Assembly (NCBI GenBank): GCA_963798915.1
Contig: CAWCVB010000001.1
Location: 256,001 to 320,000 of the forward strand
Length of the DNA stretch: 64,000 nucleotides
Source of the DNA: an uncultured Gemmatimonadales bacterium
GTDB taxonomy: Bacteria > Gemmatimonadota > Gemmatimonadetes > Gemmatimonadales > GWC2-71-9
Direction: 5' to 3'
Part shown: piece by piece, positions 2,843 to 8,640 of the stretch
Position numbering within the stretch: position 1 is the first letter of the stretch
Layout: each line of letters starts with the position of its first letter
Program-made: the position numbers and the translations under genes
The notes under the pieces: generated by a model
What the model was told of the DNA's origin: nothing
The model's database searches: none
What the model saw: only the letters and a program-made list of their open reading frames with translations

Positions 2843-3553
2843 GTGACCACTCATCGAACGGCGCTGATCACGGGCGCCACGGAAGGTATCGGGCGCGCCA
2901 TCGCGGCGGCGCTCGCCGGCGCCGGCTACCAGGTCGGCATCTGCGCCCGTACCGCGGACAGGGTGACCGAGCTGGTGGAGGAACTCCGGGCCGGTGGCGC
3001 ACGCGCTTCCGGGCGTGCGGCCGATGTTGGCCGGCCGGAGGATGTGACGGCGCTGGTTCGCCACGTGGAGCAGGAGCTGGGACCGGTGGACGTCCTGGTC
3101 AACAACGCCGGGATCGCCCGCATCCGTCCCATCGCCGAACTCACGCTCGACGATTGGGACGCCACCATGGCGACGAACCTGCGTGGCCTCTTCCTGATGA
3201 CCCAGGCGGTGCTGCCGGGCATGCGCGCGCGCCGCGCCGGCACCATCGTCAACATTGCCAGCCTCGCCGGCCGAAATGGATTTGCGGGCGGAGCCGCCTA
3301 CGCTGCGTCCAAGCATGCCGTGCTCGGCTTTGCCAAGTCGCTGATGCTGGAAGTCCGCAAGGACGACGTTCGCGTCGTCACGATCTGCCCCGGCAGCGTG
3401 GACACCAGTCTCCTGCGGCAGGAGCCGGCACTCTTCGGCAAGGATCGAAAAATCCTGACGCCCGAAGATGTTGCGGATGTCGTGCTCGCCACGCTCGCGC
3501 TGCCGGCGCGCGCGCTGGTGAGCGAGCTGGATCTTCGCCCCAGCAATCCGTGA
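2843..3553 (+). CDS. SDR family oxidoreductase
   Basis: TGATEGIG, NNAG, YAASK. Confidence 0.95.
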   Translation: MTTHRTALITGATEGIGRAIAAALAGAGYQVGICARTADRVTELVEELRAGGARASGRAADVGRPEDVTALVRHVEQELGPVDVLVNNAGIARIRPIAELTLDDWDATMATNLRGLFLMTQAVLPGMRARRAGTIVNIASLAGRNGFAGGAAYAASKHAVLGFAKSLMLEVRKDDVRVVTICPGSVDTSLLRQEPALFGKDRKILTPEDVADVVLATLALPARALVSELDLRPSNP

Positions 3554-3764
3554 GCGCTCGCCGCGACATCAGCATCACCCACTGCCTCTGCCGCCGGATG
3601 GCCTTTGCCGACCTGCTGCCGCAAGCCCGCGCGGGCGGCTGGACTCTGGACCAGCTGGTCTCCGAAACCGGCTGCGGTGCGCAGTGCGGGTTGTGCCGGC
3701 CGTACCTCAGGCGCATGCTGCAGAGCGGCGAGACCGTCTTCCACGAACTCCTGACCGAGCAACC

Positions 3765-3768
<4 letters not shown>
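3550..3768 (+). CDS. BFD-like [2Fe-2S]-binding protein
   Basis: CLC...CGAQCGLCRPY; GTGA and ATGA overlaps with both neighbours. Confidence 0.85.
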
Positions 3769-5315
<1,547 letters not shown>

Positions 5316-5336
<21 letters not shown>

Positions 5337-5363
5337 ACGGCTAGACGGCTAGACGGCTGGACG
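5316..5363. repeat. Tandem octamer GGCT(A/G)GAC containing the kinase stop codon
   Basis: About 6 copies read directly. Confidence 0.85.
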
Positions 5364-5437
5364 CGCAGCGGTAGCTTGGTGCGCGCTCGACCCTCGACGC
5401 TCGACTTTCAGCCTTCGGCCCTACTAAGTTCTCCCTG

Positions 5438-5782
5438 ATGCGTTCCAGCTGGAGTTCCCGCCTCAACGCTCTCATCCTCACCCTCCTCATCATGGGTGGC
5501 GGGAGCGGGTTGCCGGTGGTGGACGCACTCTTCCATCACCTGCGCGGCCAGGTACTGGTCGCCGGATCGCATCTCCACAATCCCGACGATTCATGCCACG
5601 CCGAACGCTGTACCCTCGGCGCACCCCTGCCCACGCTGGCGCGGACACCTCCTGCCCGACCGTCCGATCTTCTCACACCGCTACCCGGAACTCGGCTGTT
5701 CCTCGTGGAGCCTGCCCTTCCCGGCACGGCTCCAGCGCGCACGCCTGACCAGGCCCGCGCACCTCCGCACCCTCTCGGCTGA
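5438..5782 (+). CDS. DUF2946/CruR-like upstream ORF (putative RAPP arrest peptide)
   Basis: Hydrophobic N-terminus, FHH, HLH-x5-CH-x3-C, Pro-rich spacer, C-terminal RAPP; directly upstream of a TBDR. Confidence 0.75.
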   Translation: MRSSWSSRLNALILTLLIMGGGSGLPVVDALFHHLRGQVLVAGSHLHNPDDSCHAERCTLGAPLPTLARTPPARPSDLLTPLPGTRLFLVEPALPGTAPARTPDQARAPPHPLG

Positions 5783-5861
5783 TCCAATCTGACACCGGCG
5801 CTGGCGCCGCCCCCCGCGGGGCAGCGCGCGGCGCGCATGCACACCATTCAGAGAGAGAGTG
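5768..5861 (+). promoter_or_regulatory. Putative anti-SD/SD attenuator stem
   Basis: CACCCTCTCGGCTGA (5768-5782) can form 12 pairs with TCAGAGAGAGAGTG (5848-5861); GC-rich inner stems. Confidence 0.55.
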
Positions 5862-5867
5862 CTCTTC

Positions 5868-8069
5868 ATGACATTCCTGCTCTTGGCGCTGGCGCTTGGC
5901 AGCGCCGCGCCCGCTCCGGATGCGCCCGCGGGCATTATCCAAGGCACGGTGACCGGGTCGGATTCCGCCCTTGCCGGCGTGCGGGTCTCGCTGATCGAGA
6001 CCGGCAGAGTCACCACCACCGACGCGCAGGGCCATTACCGATTCTCGAGTATTGCGCGGGGGTCGTACGGCATTTCCTTCGCGATGGTGGGCTACGCACC
6101 CCGGGTGTTCCGGGTTCGAATGGAGAATTCCGATATCACGCTCAACGTTTCCCTGGTACCATCGCTGGTGGAGCTGCCCGACCTGCAGGTGACGGCCTCG
6201 CCGCTTGCGACCACCGCACTCAATTCACCGCAGCCCACGTCGGTGCTGGGCGCCGCCGACCTCGCCGCCACGGGCGCGCCGACCCTGGGCGAGACGGCAA
6301 GCAGTCTGCCCGGCGTCCGCAGCGTGAGCACCGGAGCGGGCATCGGCAAACCGGTGATCCGCGGGCTGACCTCCAACCGCGTGCTGGTGCTGGCGAATGG
6401 CCAGCGCATGGAGACGGCGCAATGGGGCGACGAACATGGCCCCAACATCGAGACGGCCGATGCCCAGCGCATCGAGGTCATTCGTGGTCCGGCCAGCGTC
6501 CTCTATGGTTCGGACGCGCTGGGCGGCGTCATCAACGTGATAGCGCGACCGCTTCCTGACGCACTCGACAAGGCGCCGTTCATGGGCGGACGCGCCGAGG
6601 CCAGCATTGCCAGCAACAACGAGATGCCGGAAGGGACCCTGGCAGTTGAAGGAGCGAGTGGCGGTTTCGGATTTCGGGCCTCCGGCACGGCTCGCCAGGG
6701 AGGCGATGTGCGCACCCCTGATGGAAAGCTGCCCAACAGCGGACTGCGCACCGTGGGCGGAGAAGCGTCGGCCGGTCTGCGCGGGGGCTGGGGATCTGGC
6801 CAGCTCACGTACGCGCACCGTGACGAACGGATAGAGATCCATGAGGACCCCGCCGAGGACCCTGGCGCCACGCCGTTCCAGCGCATCGGCGAGGATCGTG
6901 TTCACCTCGCGGCCACATTGCCGGTCGGGGAGTCGCACCTGGATGTGAACGGCGGGTATGAACGCAACAACCGTCGTGAATTCGAGGAGGATGGCGCCAC
7001 CGACGTCGCACTGGGGCTCCGCACCCAGAGCTGGACCACCGACCTGCGACTGCATCACCCAGCCGTCGGACCATTCGCCGGTATTCTGGGACTCAGTGGC
7101 GAGCGCAGCGCCCTTGGCACCTACGGTGAGGAGGCACTCGTACCGGCCAACCGCGTCGTCAACGGCGCGCTGTACCTGTCGGAGCAGGCGTCGCTTGCCC
7201 GCTGGGAGCTGAGCTTCGGGCTGCGCGGCGACCTGCGCCGCCTGGATGTGGACACGGACGATCGTCTCGGCGTCACCAGCCAGACCCGAAACTTCGGTGC
7301 CGTCAGCGGCAGCTTTGGCGCGCTGCTCCATACCACCGGGCAGACGGCCCTGGTCCTGAACGTGGGTCGAGGATTCCGTGCGCCGAGCGCATTCGAGCTG
7401 TTTGCCAACGGAGTCCATGAGGGCACCGTCCGGTTCGAGCACGGCGACTCACTGCTGGCCAACGAGCATTCGTTGAACACCGATCTCGCCTTCCGGGTCG
7501 CCTCCAACCGGGTCAGTGCCGAAGTGGGCGGGTTCCTGAACCTGGTGGACAACTACATCTACCCGGCGCCCACCAGTGGGACCGACCCAGAAAGCGGATT
7601 CCCCATTTTCCAGTACACTCAGGGCAACGCCCGCCTGACCGGATTCGAGGCGATTGCCGAGTATCATCCGTCAGCATGGCTCCATTTCCGCGGCACCGCT
7701 GATTACGTCAATGGCCAGAACACCGACCTGGCCCAGCCGCTTCCCTTTGTCCCGCCGCTCAGGGCGACATACGCGGTGCGACTCGAGGGCGCGGACATCG
7801 GAGCTGTGAGCGGACCGTATCTCTCAGTACAGGGCGAGACCAACCTCAAGCAGACACGATTGGCACCCGACGACTTTGCCCCTCCGGGCAAGACGCTGGT
7901 GCATCTGGCTGGCGGCCTGAATGCCGTGGTGGGCAGGCGGCCGATATCACTGGATGTTCAGGTGCGGAATCTGTTCGACACGGCTTACACCAGCTTCCTC
8001 AGCCGGTACAAGACGTATGCCCTGGACCCGGGGCGCAACATCATCGTGCGCGTTGGCACGGAGTTCTGA
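5868..8069 (+). CDS. TonB-dependent receptor, putative metal/metallophore uptake
   Basis: Signal peptide, N-terminal Ig-like extension, plug (KPVIRG, QWGDEHG, IEVIRGPASVLYGSDALGGVIN), C-terminal F; alternative start GTG 5859. Confidence 0.95.
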   Translation: MTFLLLALALGSAAPAPDAPAGIIQGTVTGSDSALAGVRVSLIETGRVTTTDAQGHYRFSSIARGSYGISFAMVGYAPRVFRVRMENSDITLNVSLVPSLVELPDLQVTASPLATTALNSPQPTSVLGAADLAATGAPTLGETASSLPGVRSVSTGAGIGKPVIRGLTSNRVLVLANGQRMETAQWGDEHGPNIETADAQRIEVIRGPASVLYGSDALGGVINVIARPLPDALDKAPFMGGRAEASIASNNEMPEGTLAVEGASGGFGFRASGTARQGGDVRTPDGKLPNSGLRTVGGEASAGLRGGWGSGQLTYAHRDERIEIHEDPAEDPGATPFQRIGEDRVHLAATLPVGESHLDVNGGYERNNRREFEEDGATDVALGLRTQSWTTDLRLHHPAVGPFAGILGLSGERSALGTYGEEALVPANRVVNGALYLSEQASLARWELSFGLRGDLRRLDVDTDDRLGVTSQTRNFGAVSGSFGALLHTTGQTALVLNVGRGFRAPSAFELFANGVHEGTVRFEHGDSLLANEHSLNTDLAFRVASNRVSAEVGGFLNLVDNYIYPAPTSGTDPESGFPIFQYTQGNARLTGFEAIAEYHPSAWLHFRGTADYVNGQNTDLAQPLPFVPPLRATYAVRLEGADIGAVSGPYLSVQGETNLKQTRLAPDDFAPPGKTLVHLAGGLNAVVGRRPISLDVQVRNLFDTAYTSFLSRYKTYALDPGRNIIVRVGTEF

Positions 8070-8074
8070 AAGCG

Positions 8075-8104
8075 AGAGCGGCCCGGACACTGTCCGGGCC
8101 GCTT
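8075..8104. terminator. Hairpin between convergent genes
   Basis: AGCGGCCCGGACA-C-TGTCCGGGCCGCT. Confidence 0.7.
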
Positions 8105-8108
8105 GTTC

Positions 8109-8640
8109 CTAGAGACCGCCGCCGCCGCCACCGCCTGGAGGGGCGGGCGGCATGTAGAGAATCTTGAGCGCGTAGGGACCAAAGCTGGTGGCGCCTTGGG
8201 ACACGTGAAACAGGCTGAAGTAAAGCGTGATCTGCTGGCCGACCTGCAGCCCGGCGATGGTGCCCTCGAAGGGCTTGCTGGGATCCTGCTCAAAGCTGAT
8301 GCCCGGCGGCAGCACCTGCGATGCGGCGCTGGAGGACACCCGCAGTTGCGAAGTCCTGTGGTGAAAGACTTGACTCGCGGGTTCGATTGGGGCGGAAGAA
8401 GGTGGACTGCACCTTGAACAGGCCGACGATAACCGTTGCCGTCGCACCCGCAAATCCGTTGGTGGCGTCGGTGGCGGCGTAATCGTTACCGGCAGTACCG
8501 GGCTGATCGATGACCGTAATGACCATCTTCTCGATATCGGGTTCATTACTGTTGTTGTCGGTCCCGCTGCTGCATGAGAGCAGCAGGCCGGCAACCAGGC
8601 CGGCCGGCATCAGCAGGGCTCGAGCAGTCAGGAGACGCAT
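8109..8640 (-). CDS. Hypothetical lipoprotein, frameshifted near 8349
   Basis: GGAGG RBS, lipobox LLSC; ORFs 8290-8646 and 8109-8594 join if one G is removed (QDF-QLRV); Pro/Gly tail. Confidence 0.65.

Follow-up and report, generated by a model that had tools for sequence, protein, structure and literature searches.

We analysed a stretch of 64,000 nt from an uncultured Gemmatimonadales bacterium (contig CAWCVB010000001.1, positions 256,001 to 320,000; hereafter, the window), in which a small open reading frame (ORF) with the arrest motif Arg-Ala-Pro-Pro (RAPP) at its end precedes the gene of a TonB-dependent receptor (TBDR). Our results favor, with a probability that we put at roughly 0.62, the interpretation of this upstream ORF (uORF) as a metal-responsive arrest leader: a stalled ribosome would unmask the Shine-Dalgarno (SD) sequence of the receptor gene, and the metal would end the stall and switch the importer off. 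The evidence obtained from the sequences consists of the conservation of the leader family, its remote homology to DUF2946 proteins, a fixed distance between its conserved residues and RAPP, a predicted RNA pairing that co-varies between loci, and the gene contexts. The original prediction for this locus had offered the same interpretation and is partly supported by our analyses; it was right, in particular, to place a conserved, membrane-targeted, RAPP-terminated leader directly upstream of a TBDR.

The leader gene (5438-5782; all features are given on the plus strand unless stated otherwise) encodes 114 aa of a CruR/CutF-like family. It ends in RAPP (R107-P110; codons CGC GCA CCT CCG, 5756-5767), which family conservation marks as the putative stall site, followed by four codons (His-Pro-Leu-Gly) and the stop codon TGA. 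The ORF and its translation confirmed the motifs listed for it beforehand: FHH (32-34), HLH (45-47), C53-H54 and C58 are all present. A hydrophobic helix near the N-terminus (aa 3-20, 5444-5497) is preceded by an Arg and was modeled by AlphaFold2 (AF2) with a predicted local distance difference test score (pLDDT) of 87-88; its role would be that of an export signal or membrane anchor. Across the family, the hydrophobic core and a GGGxGLP motif are conserved in the N-terminus. This region is followed by a candidate metal-sensing segment (5522-5611) defined by the conserved ligand-type residues D29 (5522-5524), H34 (5537-5539), H54 (5597-5599) and C58 (5609-5611), with H45 as a candidate auxiliary position. 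The segment between C58 and R107 (5612-5755) is a hypervariable Pro/Ala-rich spacer of fixed length, whose RNA is C-rich. The ATG of the TBDR lies 85 nt beyond the leader stop on the same strand and the genes beyond the TBDR are on the opposite strand; the unit therefore consists of the leader plus the TBDR.

A word-indexed search yielded 25 leader homologues of 112-115 aa, and those with a named source come from Gemmatimonadales metagenome-assembled genomes. Scans of genome and metagenome contigs yielded 23 loci, two of them cut by a contig end, and all 21 complete loci end in R[AG]PP followed by 3-6 residues and a stop codon. Of the 401 Gemmatimonadota genomes sampled, 54 were matched by the profile of the family; the rate was 51/166 in the window's own family, 2/5 in one sister family and 0/229 in the rest. 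Among 1.84 billion representative sequences the profile matched 264 clusters defined at 50% identity, the best 150 of which were listed. The leader family is restricted to Gemmatimonadales among the genomes searched.

Overall identity in the family is as low as 24-42% despite a set of invariant residues. D29, H34, H54 and C58 are each found in 156 of the 157 full-length proteins; R107, P109 and P110 are present in 157/157 and A108 in 148/157. The conservation expected for RAPP and for the His/Cys positions thus held for RAPP, H34, H54 and C58 and failed at positions 47 and 33, with His at position 47 in only six of these proteins and usually Phe or Tyr at position 33. H45 is intermediate (101/157). 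The site that had been described as CHxxxC is really HxxxC, since C53 occurs in only 38/157. R-x-PP lies no more than 10 residues from the C-terminus in 163/172 family proteins (154 RAPP, four RSPP, three RGPP and two RPPP), and the remaining nine look truncated.

The distances between these elements are constrained as well. The Cys of HxxxC and the Arg of the arrest motif are 48-49 residues apart in 155 of 160 proteins and 47-50 residues apart in all 160, and the tail after R-x-PP measures 4 aa in 114/163. Residues 61-106 are hypervariable and not alignable, yet their length is fixed. A fixed distance between motif and RAPP has also been described for CruR, in which altered spacing impaired regulation (PMC9426467).

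The leader had been linked to the Pfam family DUF2946, and this link stands as remote homology and fails as family membership. Indeed, scans of the leader against Pfam and NCBIfam returned no family, and the DUF2946 hidden Markov model (HMM; PF11162) gave no match to it at E ≤ 10. Relatives of the leader scored at most 20.8 bits, where the curated gathering cut-off is 23.7 bits, with sub-threshold matches in 11/30 and 11/136 members; the window's own genome contains no DUF2946 match above the cut-off. The CxxC motif occurs in 0/172 family proteins: C58 aligns with its first Cys and the position of the second is Gly61. In contrast, a profile comparison with hhalign between 30 diverse members and five true DUF2946 proteins gave a probability of 93.3% (E = 2.8e-7; 102 columns), the DUF2946 side being represented by only these five sequences of the same phylum, with CruR itself outside the comparison. 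The family also has the C-terminal RAPP (107-110 of 114) and the fixed motif-RAPP spacing of DUF2946-type leaders. True DUF2946 genes, with CxxC and RAPP, were found in 6/301 genomes of the phylum and in 0/125 genomes of the window's family, and the two types of genes form complementary sets within the phylum. The window leader further shows the four features that define "CutF-like" genes in the account of Ozturk et al. 2023 (PMC9973294): a length of 114 aa (<150), a PP at 109-110 (within the last 15 residues), an N-terminal signal, here judged from the AF2 helix 3-20 rather than from a dedicated signal-peptide predictor, and a same-strand neighbor within 1000 nt. Because of the hhalign homology and these CutF-like features, together with a score below the DUF2946 threshold and the missing CxxC, we read the leader family as a branch that has diverged within the CruR/CutF superfamily and not as a member of Pfam DUF2946.

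We further analyzed the RNA between the arrest motif and the start of the receptor gene. An anti-SD of three blocks, GCAC/CUCUC/CUGA (5767-5782), comprises the last base of RAPP, the four tail codons and the stop codon. In the minimum-free-energy (MFE) fold of 5744-5885 (ΔG −55.9 kcal/mol; z −1.84), it is paired with the purine tract/SD of the TBDR (UCAGAGAGAGAGUGC, 5848-5862) through 5767-5770/5859-5862, 5772-5776/5853-5857 and 5779-5782/5848-5851, the partner strand contributing UCAG/GAGAG/GUGC. Enclosed by this helix is a GC-rich spacer stem-loop (5798-5834), which brings anti-SD and SD together. The 12 pairs anticipated between the tail and the ribosome-binding site (RBS) were recovered as part of a helix of 13, and this pairing is far stronger than for shuffled tails (duplex energy of −18.9 vs. 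−8.8 ± 3.0 kcal/mol; z −3.4). None of the other 27-nt segments of the uORF and spacer binds the SD better (128 segments tested in all). When the transcript was made to begin at the leader ATG, pairing of the SD tract with the zone from RAPP to 8 nt past the stop had a probability of 0.60-0.80 for 10/10 3' ends, and across all contexts this probability reached at least 0.6 in 41/50.

The pairing is conserved beyond the window. RNAalifold retained both the tail/SD helix and the central stem-loop across eight close relatives, with compensatory changes in seven of 24 pairs: six in the stem-loop, whose consensus over the eight loci has 16 pairs, and one among the eight pairs kept in the tail/SD helix. 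Covariation at fixed columns is weak in this helix because the register of its (CU)n/(AG)n repeats shifts from locus to locus. Among 44 non-redundant loci, the partner of the SD is centered 0-35 nt after the start of RAPP in 29, and the RAPP zone takes on average 0.61 of the SD pairing probability, relative to 0.19 for the 150 nt upstream. Shuffling the zone reduced the per-nucleotide probability from 0.53 to 0.13 (native higher in 38/44 loci), and swapping it with that of a locus with a different SD reduced it from 0.53 to 0.22 (native higher in 33/44); for the window, the native value of 0.85 dropped to 0.0005 on shuffling and to 0.002 on swapping. The mean energy of native tail/SD duplexes is −18.1 kcal/mol vs. 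−14.0 for permuted pairs, and 0/20,000 permutations were as low, but the loci are related and these permutation figures, like the Wilcoxon figures, overstate significance. These results are in line with the anti-SD/SD co-variation that had been proposed: the predicted partner changes when the SD changes.

Codon usage in the tail provides independent support for the pairing. The second tail codon is CCT, ACT or TCT in 7/8 close relatives and is followed by CTC in 8/8, whereas TCT, ACT and CCT represent only 1%, 5% and 9% of their codon families in the genes of the window, where the GC-content of third codon positions is 0.80. These rare NCU codons maintain the predicted tail/SD pairing. We also observed a bias in the RAPP codons of the 44 loci, with GCA/GCT for Ala in 28/44 and CCA/CCT for the first Pro in 30/44; the corresponding choices make up 16% and 19% in the window genes. 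This bias may reflect either the anti-SD content or the tRNA choice at the stall site.

A stalled ribosome encloses roughly the next 13-15 nt of its messenger. The geometry of the ApdA/ApdP structures, as described in PMC10951233, would place the P site of a ribosome stalled on the window leader at 5762-5764. By this analogy, the footprint would cover GCAC and CUCUC and leave only the CUGA:UCAG pairing. Masking the footprint in folding restricted to equilibrium, hence without co-transcriptional order, 30S capture or other kinetics, reduced the cost of opening the RBS by 4-8 kcal/mol in close relatives; among the 44 loci, the drop was at least 3 kcal/mol in 12 and at least 1 kcal/mol in 30, and a rise of at least 1 kcal/mol was seen in three.

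We propose the following sequence of events. The N-terminal helix would take the nascent chain to the membrane, and the segment with Asp29, His34, His54 and Cys58 would become exposed outside the ribosome. Translation would then pause at Arg-Ala-Pro-Pro, 48-49 residues behind Cys58, with the ribosome on RAPP covering the next ~13-15 nt, i.e., the pyrimidine-rich anti-SD. Without a stall, the anti-SD would pair with the SD tract of the receptor across the GC-rich stem-loop; as the stall covers the anti-SD, the receptor would be translatable only during the stall. Binding of metal to the emerging segment would pull or fold the chain and end the stall, after which termination four codons further on would allow the helix to re-form, such that the importer is off when the metal is plentiful.

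The downstream receptor (5868-8069) presents CarboxypepD_reg and Plug domains and a barrel; we take the ATG at 5868-5870 as its start, and the ORF list contains an in-frame GTG at 5859. Its best match among solved structures, by a wide margin, is ZnuD (E = 3.3e-26; the next match is at 1.6e-13). The zinc ligands of ZnuD given in PMC4557270 are Asp-99, His-100 and Glu-340 as well as His-499, and they align with E189 and H190 (6432-6437), E373 (6984-6986) and H517 (7416-7418) of the window TBDR: 4/4 positions are kept, with Asp replaced by Glu at the first. Among 11 full-length leader-linked TBDRs, which are otherwise 35-47% identical to the window TBDR, 10 keep all four residues unchanged. The two His of ZnuD are also used by haem receptors according to the same source (PMC4557270), and the window TBDR matches the ZnuD-type NCBIfam model NF038289 only partially (147 bits; cut-off 950 bits). 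The window TBDR contains no Cys, and no PepSY_TM gene was seen behind it; such a gene follows the copper TBDR CrtA, located behind CruR, in over 75% of loci (PMC12914433). One close relative (L012, 4436 onward) has a TBDR seemingly devoid of a signal peptide, which starts with MTFVSLVETGR and has 697 aa vs. about 734 aa, possibly due to an N-terminal deletion or to an assembly fault.

The metal question is also informed by a paralogue of the leader in the same genome (G000:C5:506492-506812; L027; L028, 6406-12415), which contains CHAERC and ends in HSRAPPIRYS. The genes that directly follow this paralogue encode a TolC/CzcC-like protein, a CzcB-type adaptor and a pump of the CusA/CzcA family (TIGR00914, 886 bits, above cut-off). 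The RND pump carries DFG..DGA..VEN in its fourth transmembrane segment, which we take to be the mark of divalent-cation HME pumps. Given the ZnuD-like TBDR with its ligands, the CzcCBA-type operon of the paralogue, and the absence of Cys and PepSY_TM, the sensed metal is most likely a divalent ion, with zinc as the first candidate. The suspicion that the leader responds to a metal other than copper thus gains support, although copper could still be the metal sensed.

The neighbors of other leaders show that the context extends beyond importers. Among 28 diverse loci, the next gene encodes a TBDR-like protein in 12 (eight with a Plug match and four with the N-terminal domain alone in the available sequence), an OEP protein (TolC/CzcC-like) in six and a secreted protein without known function in 10. 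In the first set of loci, five further ones were confirmed as TBDR-type and one is of unknown type (L020, whose neighbor has no Pfam family); L002 and L014 contain too little downstream sequence to type the neighbor. The third class of neighbors, found in 10/28 loci (L031, L035, L040, L043, L046, L048, L050, L051, L053 and L054) plus L020, consists of secreted proteins of about 450-480 aa without a Pfam family. The neighbor at L043, the sole one searched, has its nearest clusters mostly in Gemmatimonadota and presents a weak lead to Porin_O_P (22% of the members of the named cluster). Finally, several genomes (G150, G236, G328, G191, G186, G145, G358 and G146) contain between two and four copies of the leader, which frequently lie on a single contig at 3-6 kb from each other and thus suggest tandem leader-plus-target cassettes.

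Several observations weigh against our interpretation. We infer the stall, its dependence on metal and the direction of that dependence, the topology of the leader and the identity of the metal, and none of these was observed. The masked folding that had been called for did lower the opening cost, but by only 0.5-2.7 kcal/mol in the window: from 12.0 to 11.5 kcal/mol for positions −18 to +5 at equilibrium, and by 0.7-2.7 kcal/mol for the RBS with the natural 5' end. The effect is small because the purine tract finds new partners downstream, in CUCUU tracts of the TBDR coding region; indeed, it pairs with these tracts in 9/50 contexts when the ribosome is absent. Codons for Pro-Pro resemble an anti-SD by nature, and 15/44 loci have a weak anti-SD design or none. 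The AF2 model of the leader, built from 30 aligned relatives, has a mean pLDDT of 71.7 with helices only at 3-20 and 24-37, and it shows no folded metal site, the HxxxC region scoring below 50 (pLDDT <50 at 56-58). An Asp/His/His/Cys set could also bind copper. The missing DUF2946 match and the missing CxxC belong here as well. Moreover, the same sensor placed before an importer and before an efflux pump cannot use a single polarity, and a stall-site anti-SD was found in only one of four non-redundant efflux-type loci; in the operon of the paralogue, no pairing was predicted between the SD and the stall zone. The missing anti-SD at efflux-type loci fits a requirement for the reverse polarity, but no conclusion can be based on only four loci.

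These contexts bear on a more specific proposal that we advance only tentatively, as a possibility with the odds against it: that a zinc- or divalent-sensing nascent chain acts as a force-generating "ruler" within a leaderless cassette that Gemmatimonadales have connected to a ZnuD-like importer, a CzcC-led efflux pump and an unknown porin-like protein, with an RNA wiring that varies with the polarity required. The Asp/His/His/Cys site, exactly 48-49 residues from the peptidyl-transferase center, would leave the translocon at the moment when the ribosome arrives at RAPP, and formation of the site around the metal would pull the chain and release the arrest.

Other mechanisms could account for part of the same data. 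In CruR, the only studied TBDR-linked relative, the output is based on Rho, with a rut site located within the leader, where C exceeds G (PMC9426467). If this applied here, the stall would block Rho, metal-induced release would lead to termination in the spacer, and the tail/SD helix would be secondary or additive. In the leaders, the final 150 nt contain C and G at mean fractions of 0.44 and 0.29, the strong stem-loop of the spacer could be a pause site, and the equilibrium unmasking is small in the window. We nevertheless consider a Rho output unlikely: the spacers are short (85 nt in the window; 48-188 nt, mean 87 nt, across the 44 loci; 162 nt in cruR) and highly structured (mean MFE of −34 kcal/mol), and Rho alone leaves unexplained why the partner of the SD lies in the stall footprint, why it co-varies with the SD and why the tail uses rare codons. 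Rho termination and SD shielding can, however, coexist. The polarity could also be reversed, with the metal causing the stall and the downstream gene being on when metal is present, as shown for CutF/cutO along with an SD-shielding stem-loop (PMC9973294; bioRxiv 10.1101/2025.02.05.636593). Such a polarity would suit the paralogue located before the CzcCBA-type efflux operon, but a ZnuD-like importer induced by its own metal is physiologically odd, and three of the four efflux-type loci lack the stall-site anti-SD of TBDR-type loci, which points to a difference in wiring rather than to one polarity for both. This option appears improbable.

Much less credible still is the possibility that the product is a stable small membrane or periplasmic metal-binding protein, such as a chaperone or a TBDR accessory, with RAPP and the pairing being incidental. 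It would account for the conserved Asp/His/His/Cys set, the N-terminal anchor and a gene that always lies beside outer-membrane proteins. Against this stand the hypervariable but length-fixed residues 61-106, the invariance of RAPP at a fixed distance from the stop, and the AF2 model without a fold beyond two helices; RAPP is also among the most avoided sequences in bacterial proteomes (PMC12992588), and CruR and CutF are described as undetectable as proteins (PMC9426467, PMC9973294). Finally, the window has a GC-content of 66% and contains many spurious ORFs, from which a chance ORF with chance complementarity could arise. This explanation was rejected, and its probability is negligible: the profile matches 54/401 genomes and 264 clusters, residues are invariant at 24-42% identity, and the pairing is lost on shuffling.

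We then examined the surroundings of the unit. A −10-like hexamer, TAAGTT (5425-5430), lies 7 nt before the leader ATG and is a putative promoter element. In 28 of 41 related loci, the distance from the beginning of a TANNNT hexamer to the leader start is 13-11 nt, and in 31 it is 16-10 nt, with no occurrence between −60 and −24. There is no SD ahead of the leader (mean upstream SD ΔG of −0.8 kcal/mol across the 41 loci). The hexamer near the start and the missing SD suggest that the leaders have their own promoter, from which leaderless transcripts would be made and translated. Scans for sigma-70 and terminator consensus sequences in 5200-8400 returned 0 sites. The fold of 5305-5440 is not more stable than shuffled sequences (z 0.08), and we therefore claim no terminator after the upstream kinase gene. 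An Rfam scan of 5250-6000 (E ≤ 1) matched no family, and thus no known riboswitch such as NiCo was detected in this region.

This upstream gene encodes a GAF-HisKA-HATPase kinase (3684-5336) and, together with a preceding SDR gene, spans 2843-5336. The kinase precedes the leader in 19/23 loci and is missing upstream of L011 and L017, the nearest relatives of the leader. Identity between related loci is much higher for the SDR and kinase genes (62-88%) than for the leader (43-77%) or the TBDR (35-54%). An 8-bp tandem repeat (GCTAGACG, six copies, 5316-5363) spans the stop codon of the kinase gene, and a 7-bp repeat, CTCGACC (2.9 copies, 5386-5405), lies about where the −35 of the putative leader promoter would be; relatives present other, lineage-specific repeats or inverted repeats at the equivalent place. 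On the other side of the unit, a 161-aa ORF on the minus strand (8109-8594) follows just after the TBDR. It has no Pfam family; at least eight related loci contain it, at 28-51% protein identity, and L007 and L008 have it in duplicate.

Arrest leaders of this kind have been published for copper (CruR, PMC9426467; CutF, PMC9973294; bioRxiv 10.1101/2025.02.05.636593), and a 2025 survey reported RAPP/RGPP uORFs before TBDR genes across Gram-negative phyla (PMC12992588). The term "Gemmatimonad" is absent from the main texts of PMC9973294 and PMC12992588, the supplementary member lists being outside this comparison, and our literature search returned no paper combining it with "arrest peptide". Among titles and the beginnings of abstracts, the search found no description of a zinc-responsive arrest peptide with a TBDR. 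Metal sensing by arrest leaders is shown experimentally only for copper, in CruR and CutF. We therefore regard the present family as a new, unannotated variant of a published regulatory device, with a function suggested by sequence and comparison.

If this is correct, the sensor of this family is compact and poor in Cys, has four near-invariant ligand-type residues and is tied to the stall site by a very strict ruler. Uptake- and efflux-wired paralogues in a single genome would offer a natural system for studying opposite outputs from one nascent-chain sensor. The Pfam DUF2946 model misses this whole phylum-level branch, whose genes are annotated as hypothetical, and importers located behind unannotated leaders would be mis-modeled as unregulated.

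Among known systems, arrest peptides of the ApdA/ApdP/SecM type (PMC10951233, PMC12992588) resemble the leader in having a RAPP core near the C-terminus of a small exported protein, a force-sensitive release and an output on the RBS of the next gene, the last two being predicted here. Those peptides monitor Sec/YidC and precede sec or yidC genes, whereas the Gemmatimonadales leader has a conserved set of metal-ligand-type residues and precedes metal-transport genes. Other likenesses concern context. A table of the Caulobacter Zur regulon (PMC4176598) contains DUF2946 genes before czrCBA and TBDR genes, as for the paralogue at G000:C5, and CzcI before the Cupriavidus czcCBA genes (mentioned in PMC9973294) has a similar placement before a divalent-metal RND efflux system but no Pro motif; in the sources consulted, the mechanism was not studied in these two cases.

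CruR (Bp2923) of Bordetella pertussis, from cruR-crtA(bfrG)-bp2921 (PMC9426467, PMC12914433), had served as the model of the original prediction, and the parallel proved apt for the architecture but not for the output: a RAPP leader precedes a TBDR in both cases, but CruR acts through Rho-dependent termination (PMC9426467), and SD shielding is the mechanism of CutF (PMC9973294). In both CruR and the window leader, a small exported leader comes first before the TBDR, RAPP lies 3-4 residues from the end, the motif-RAPP spacing is fixed (46 in CruR vs. 48-49 here) and the RNA inside the leader is C-rich. The two differ in that CruR has CxxC and the Gemmatimonadales leader has the Asp/His/His/Cys set and scores below the Pfam threshold; in the spacer, of 162 nt in cruR and 85 nt here, where it is accompanied by an SD-shielding helix; and in the TBDR, which in the window is ZnuD-like, rather than of the CrtA copper subfamily, and without a PepSY_TM gene after it. 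CutF of Rhodobacter capsulatus (cutFOG; PMC9973294) differs in its parts, with a CxxxC, a PPP-type motif, copper sensing, a multicopper oxidase downstream and activation by the metal. In the published set of CutF-like genes, OEP and TonB-like neighbors are the two commonest classes (PMC9973294). The likeness of CutF lies in the RNA: the SD of the following gene is shielded by a stem-loop with an anti-SD, and a ribosome pausing on the C-terminal Pro motif opens this structure (PMC9973294), which is the step that we predict for the Gemmatimonadales leader.

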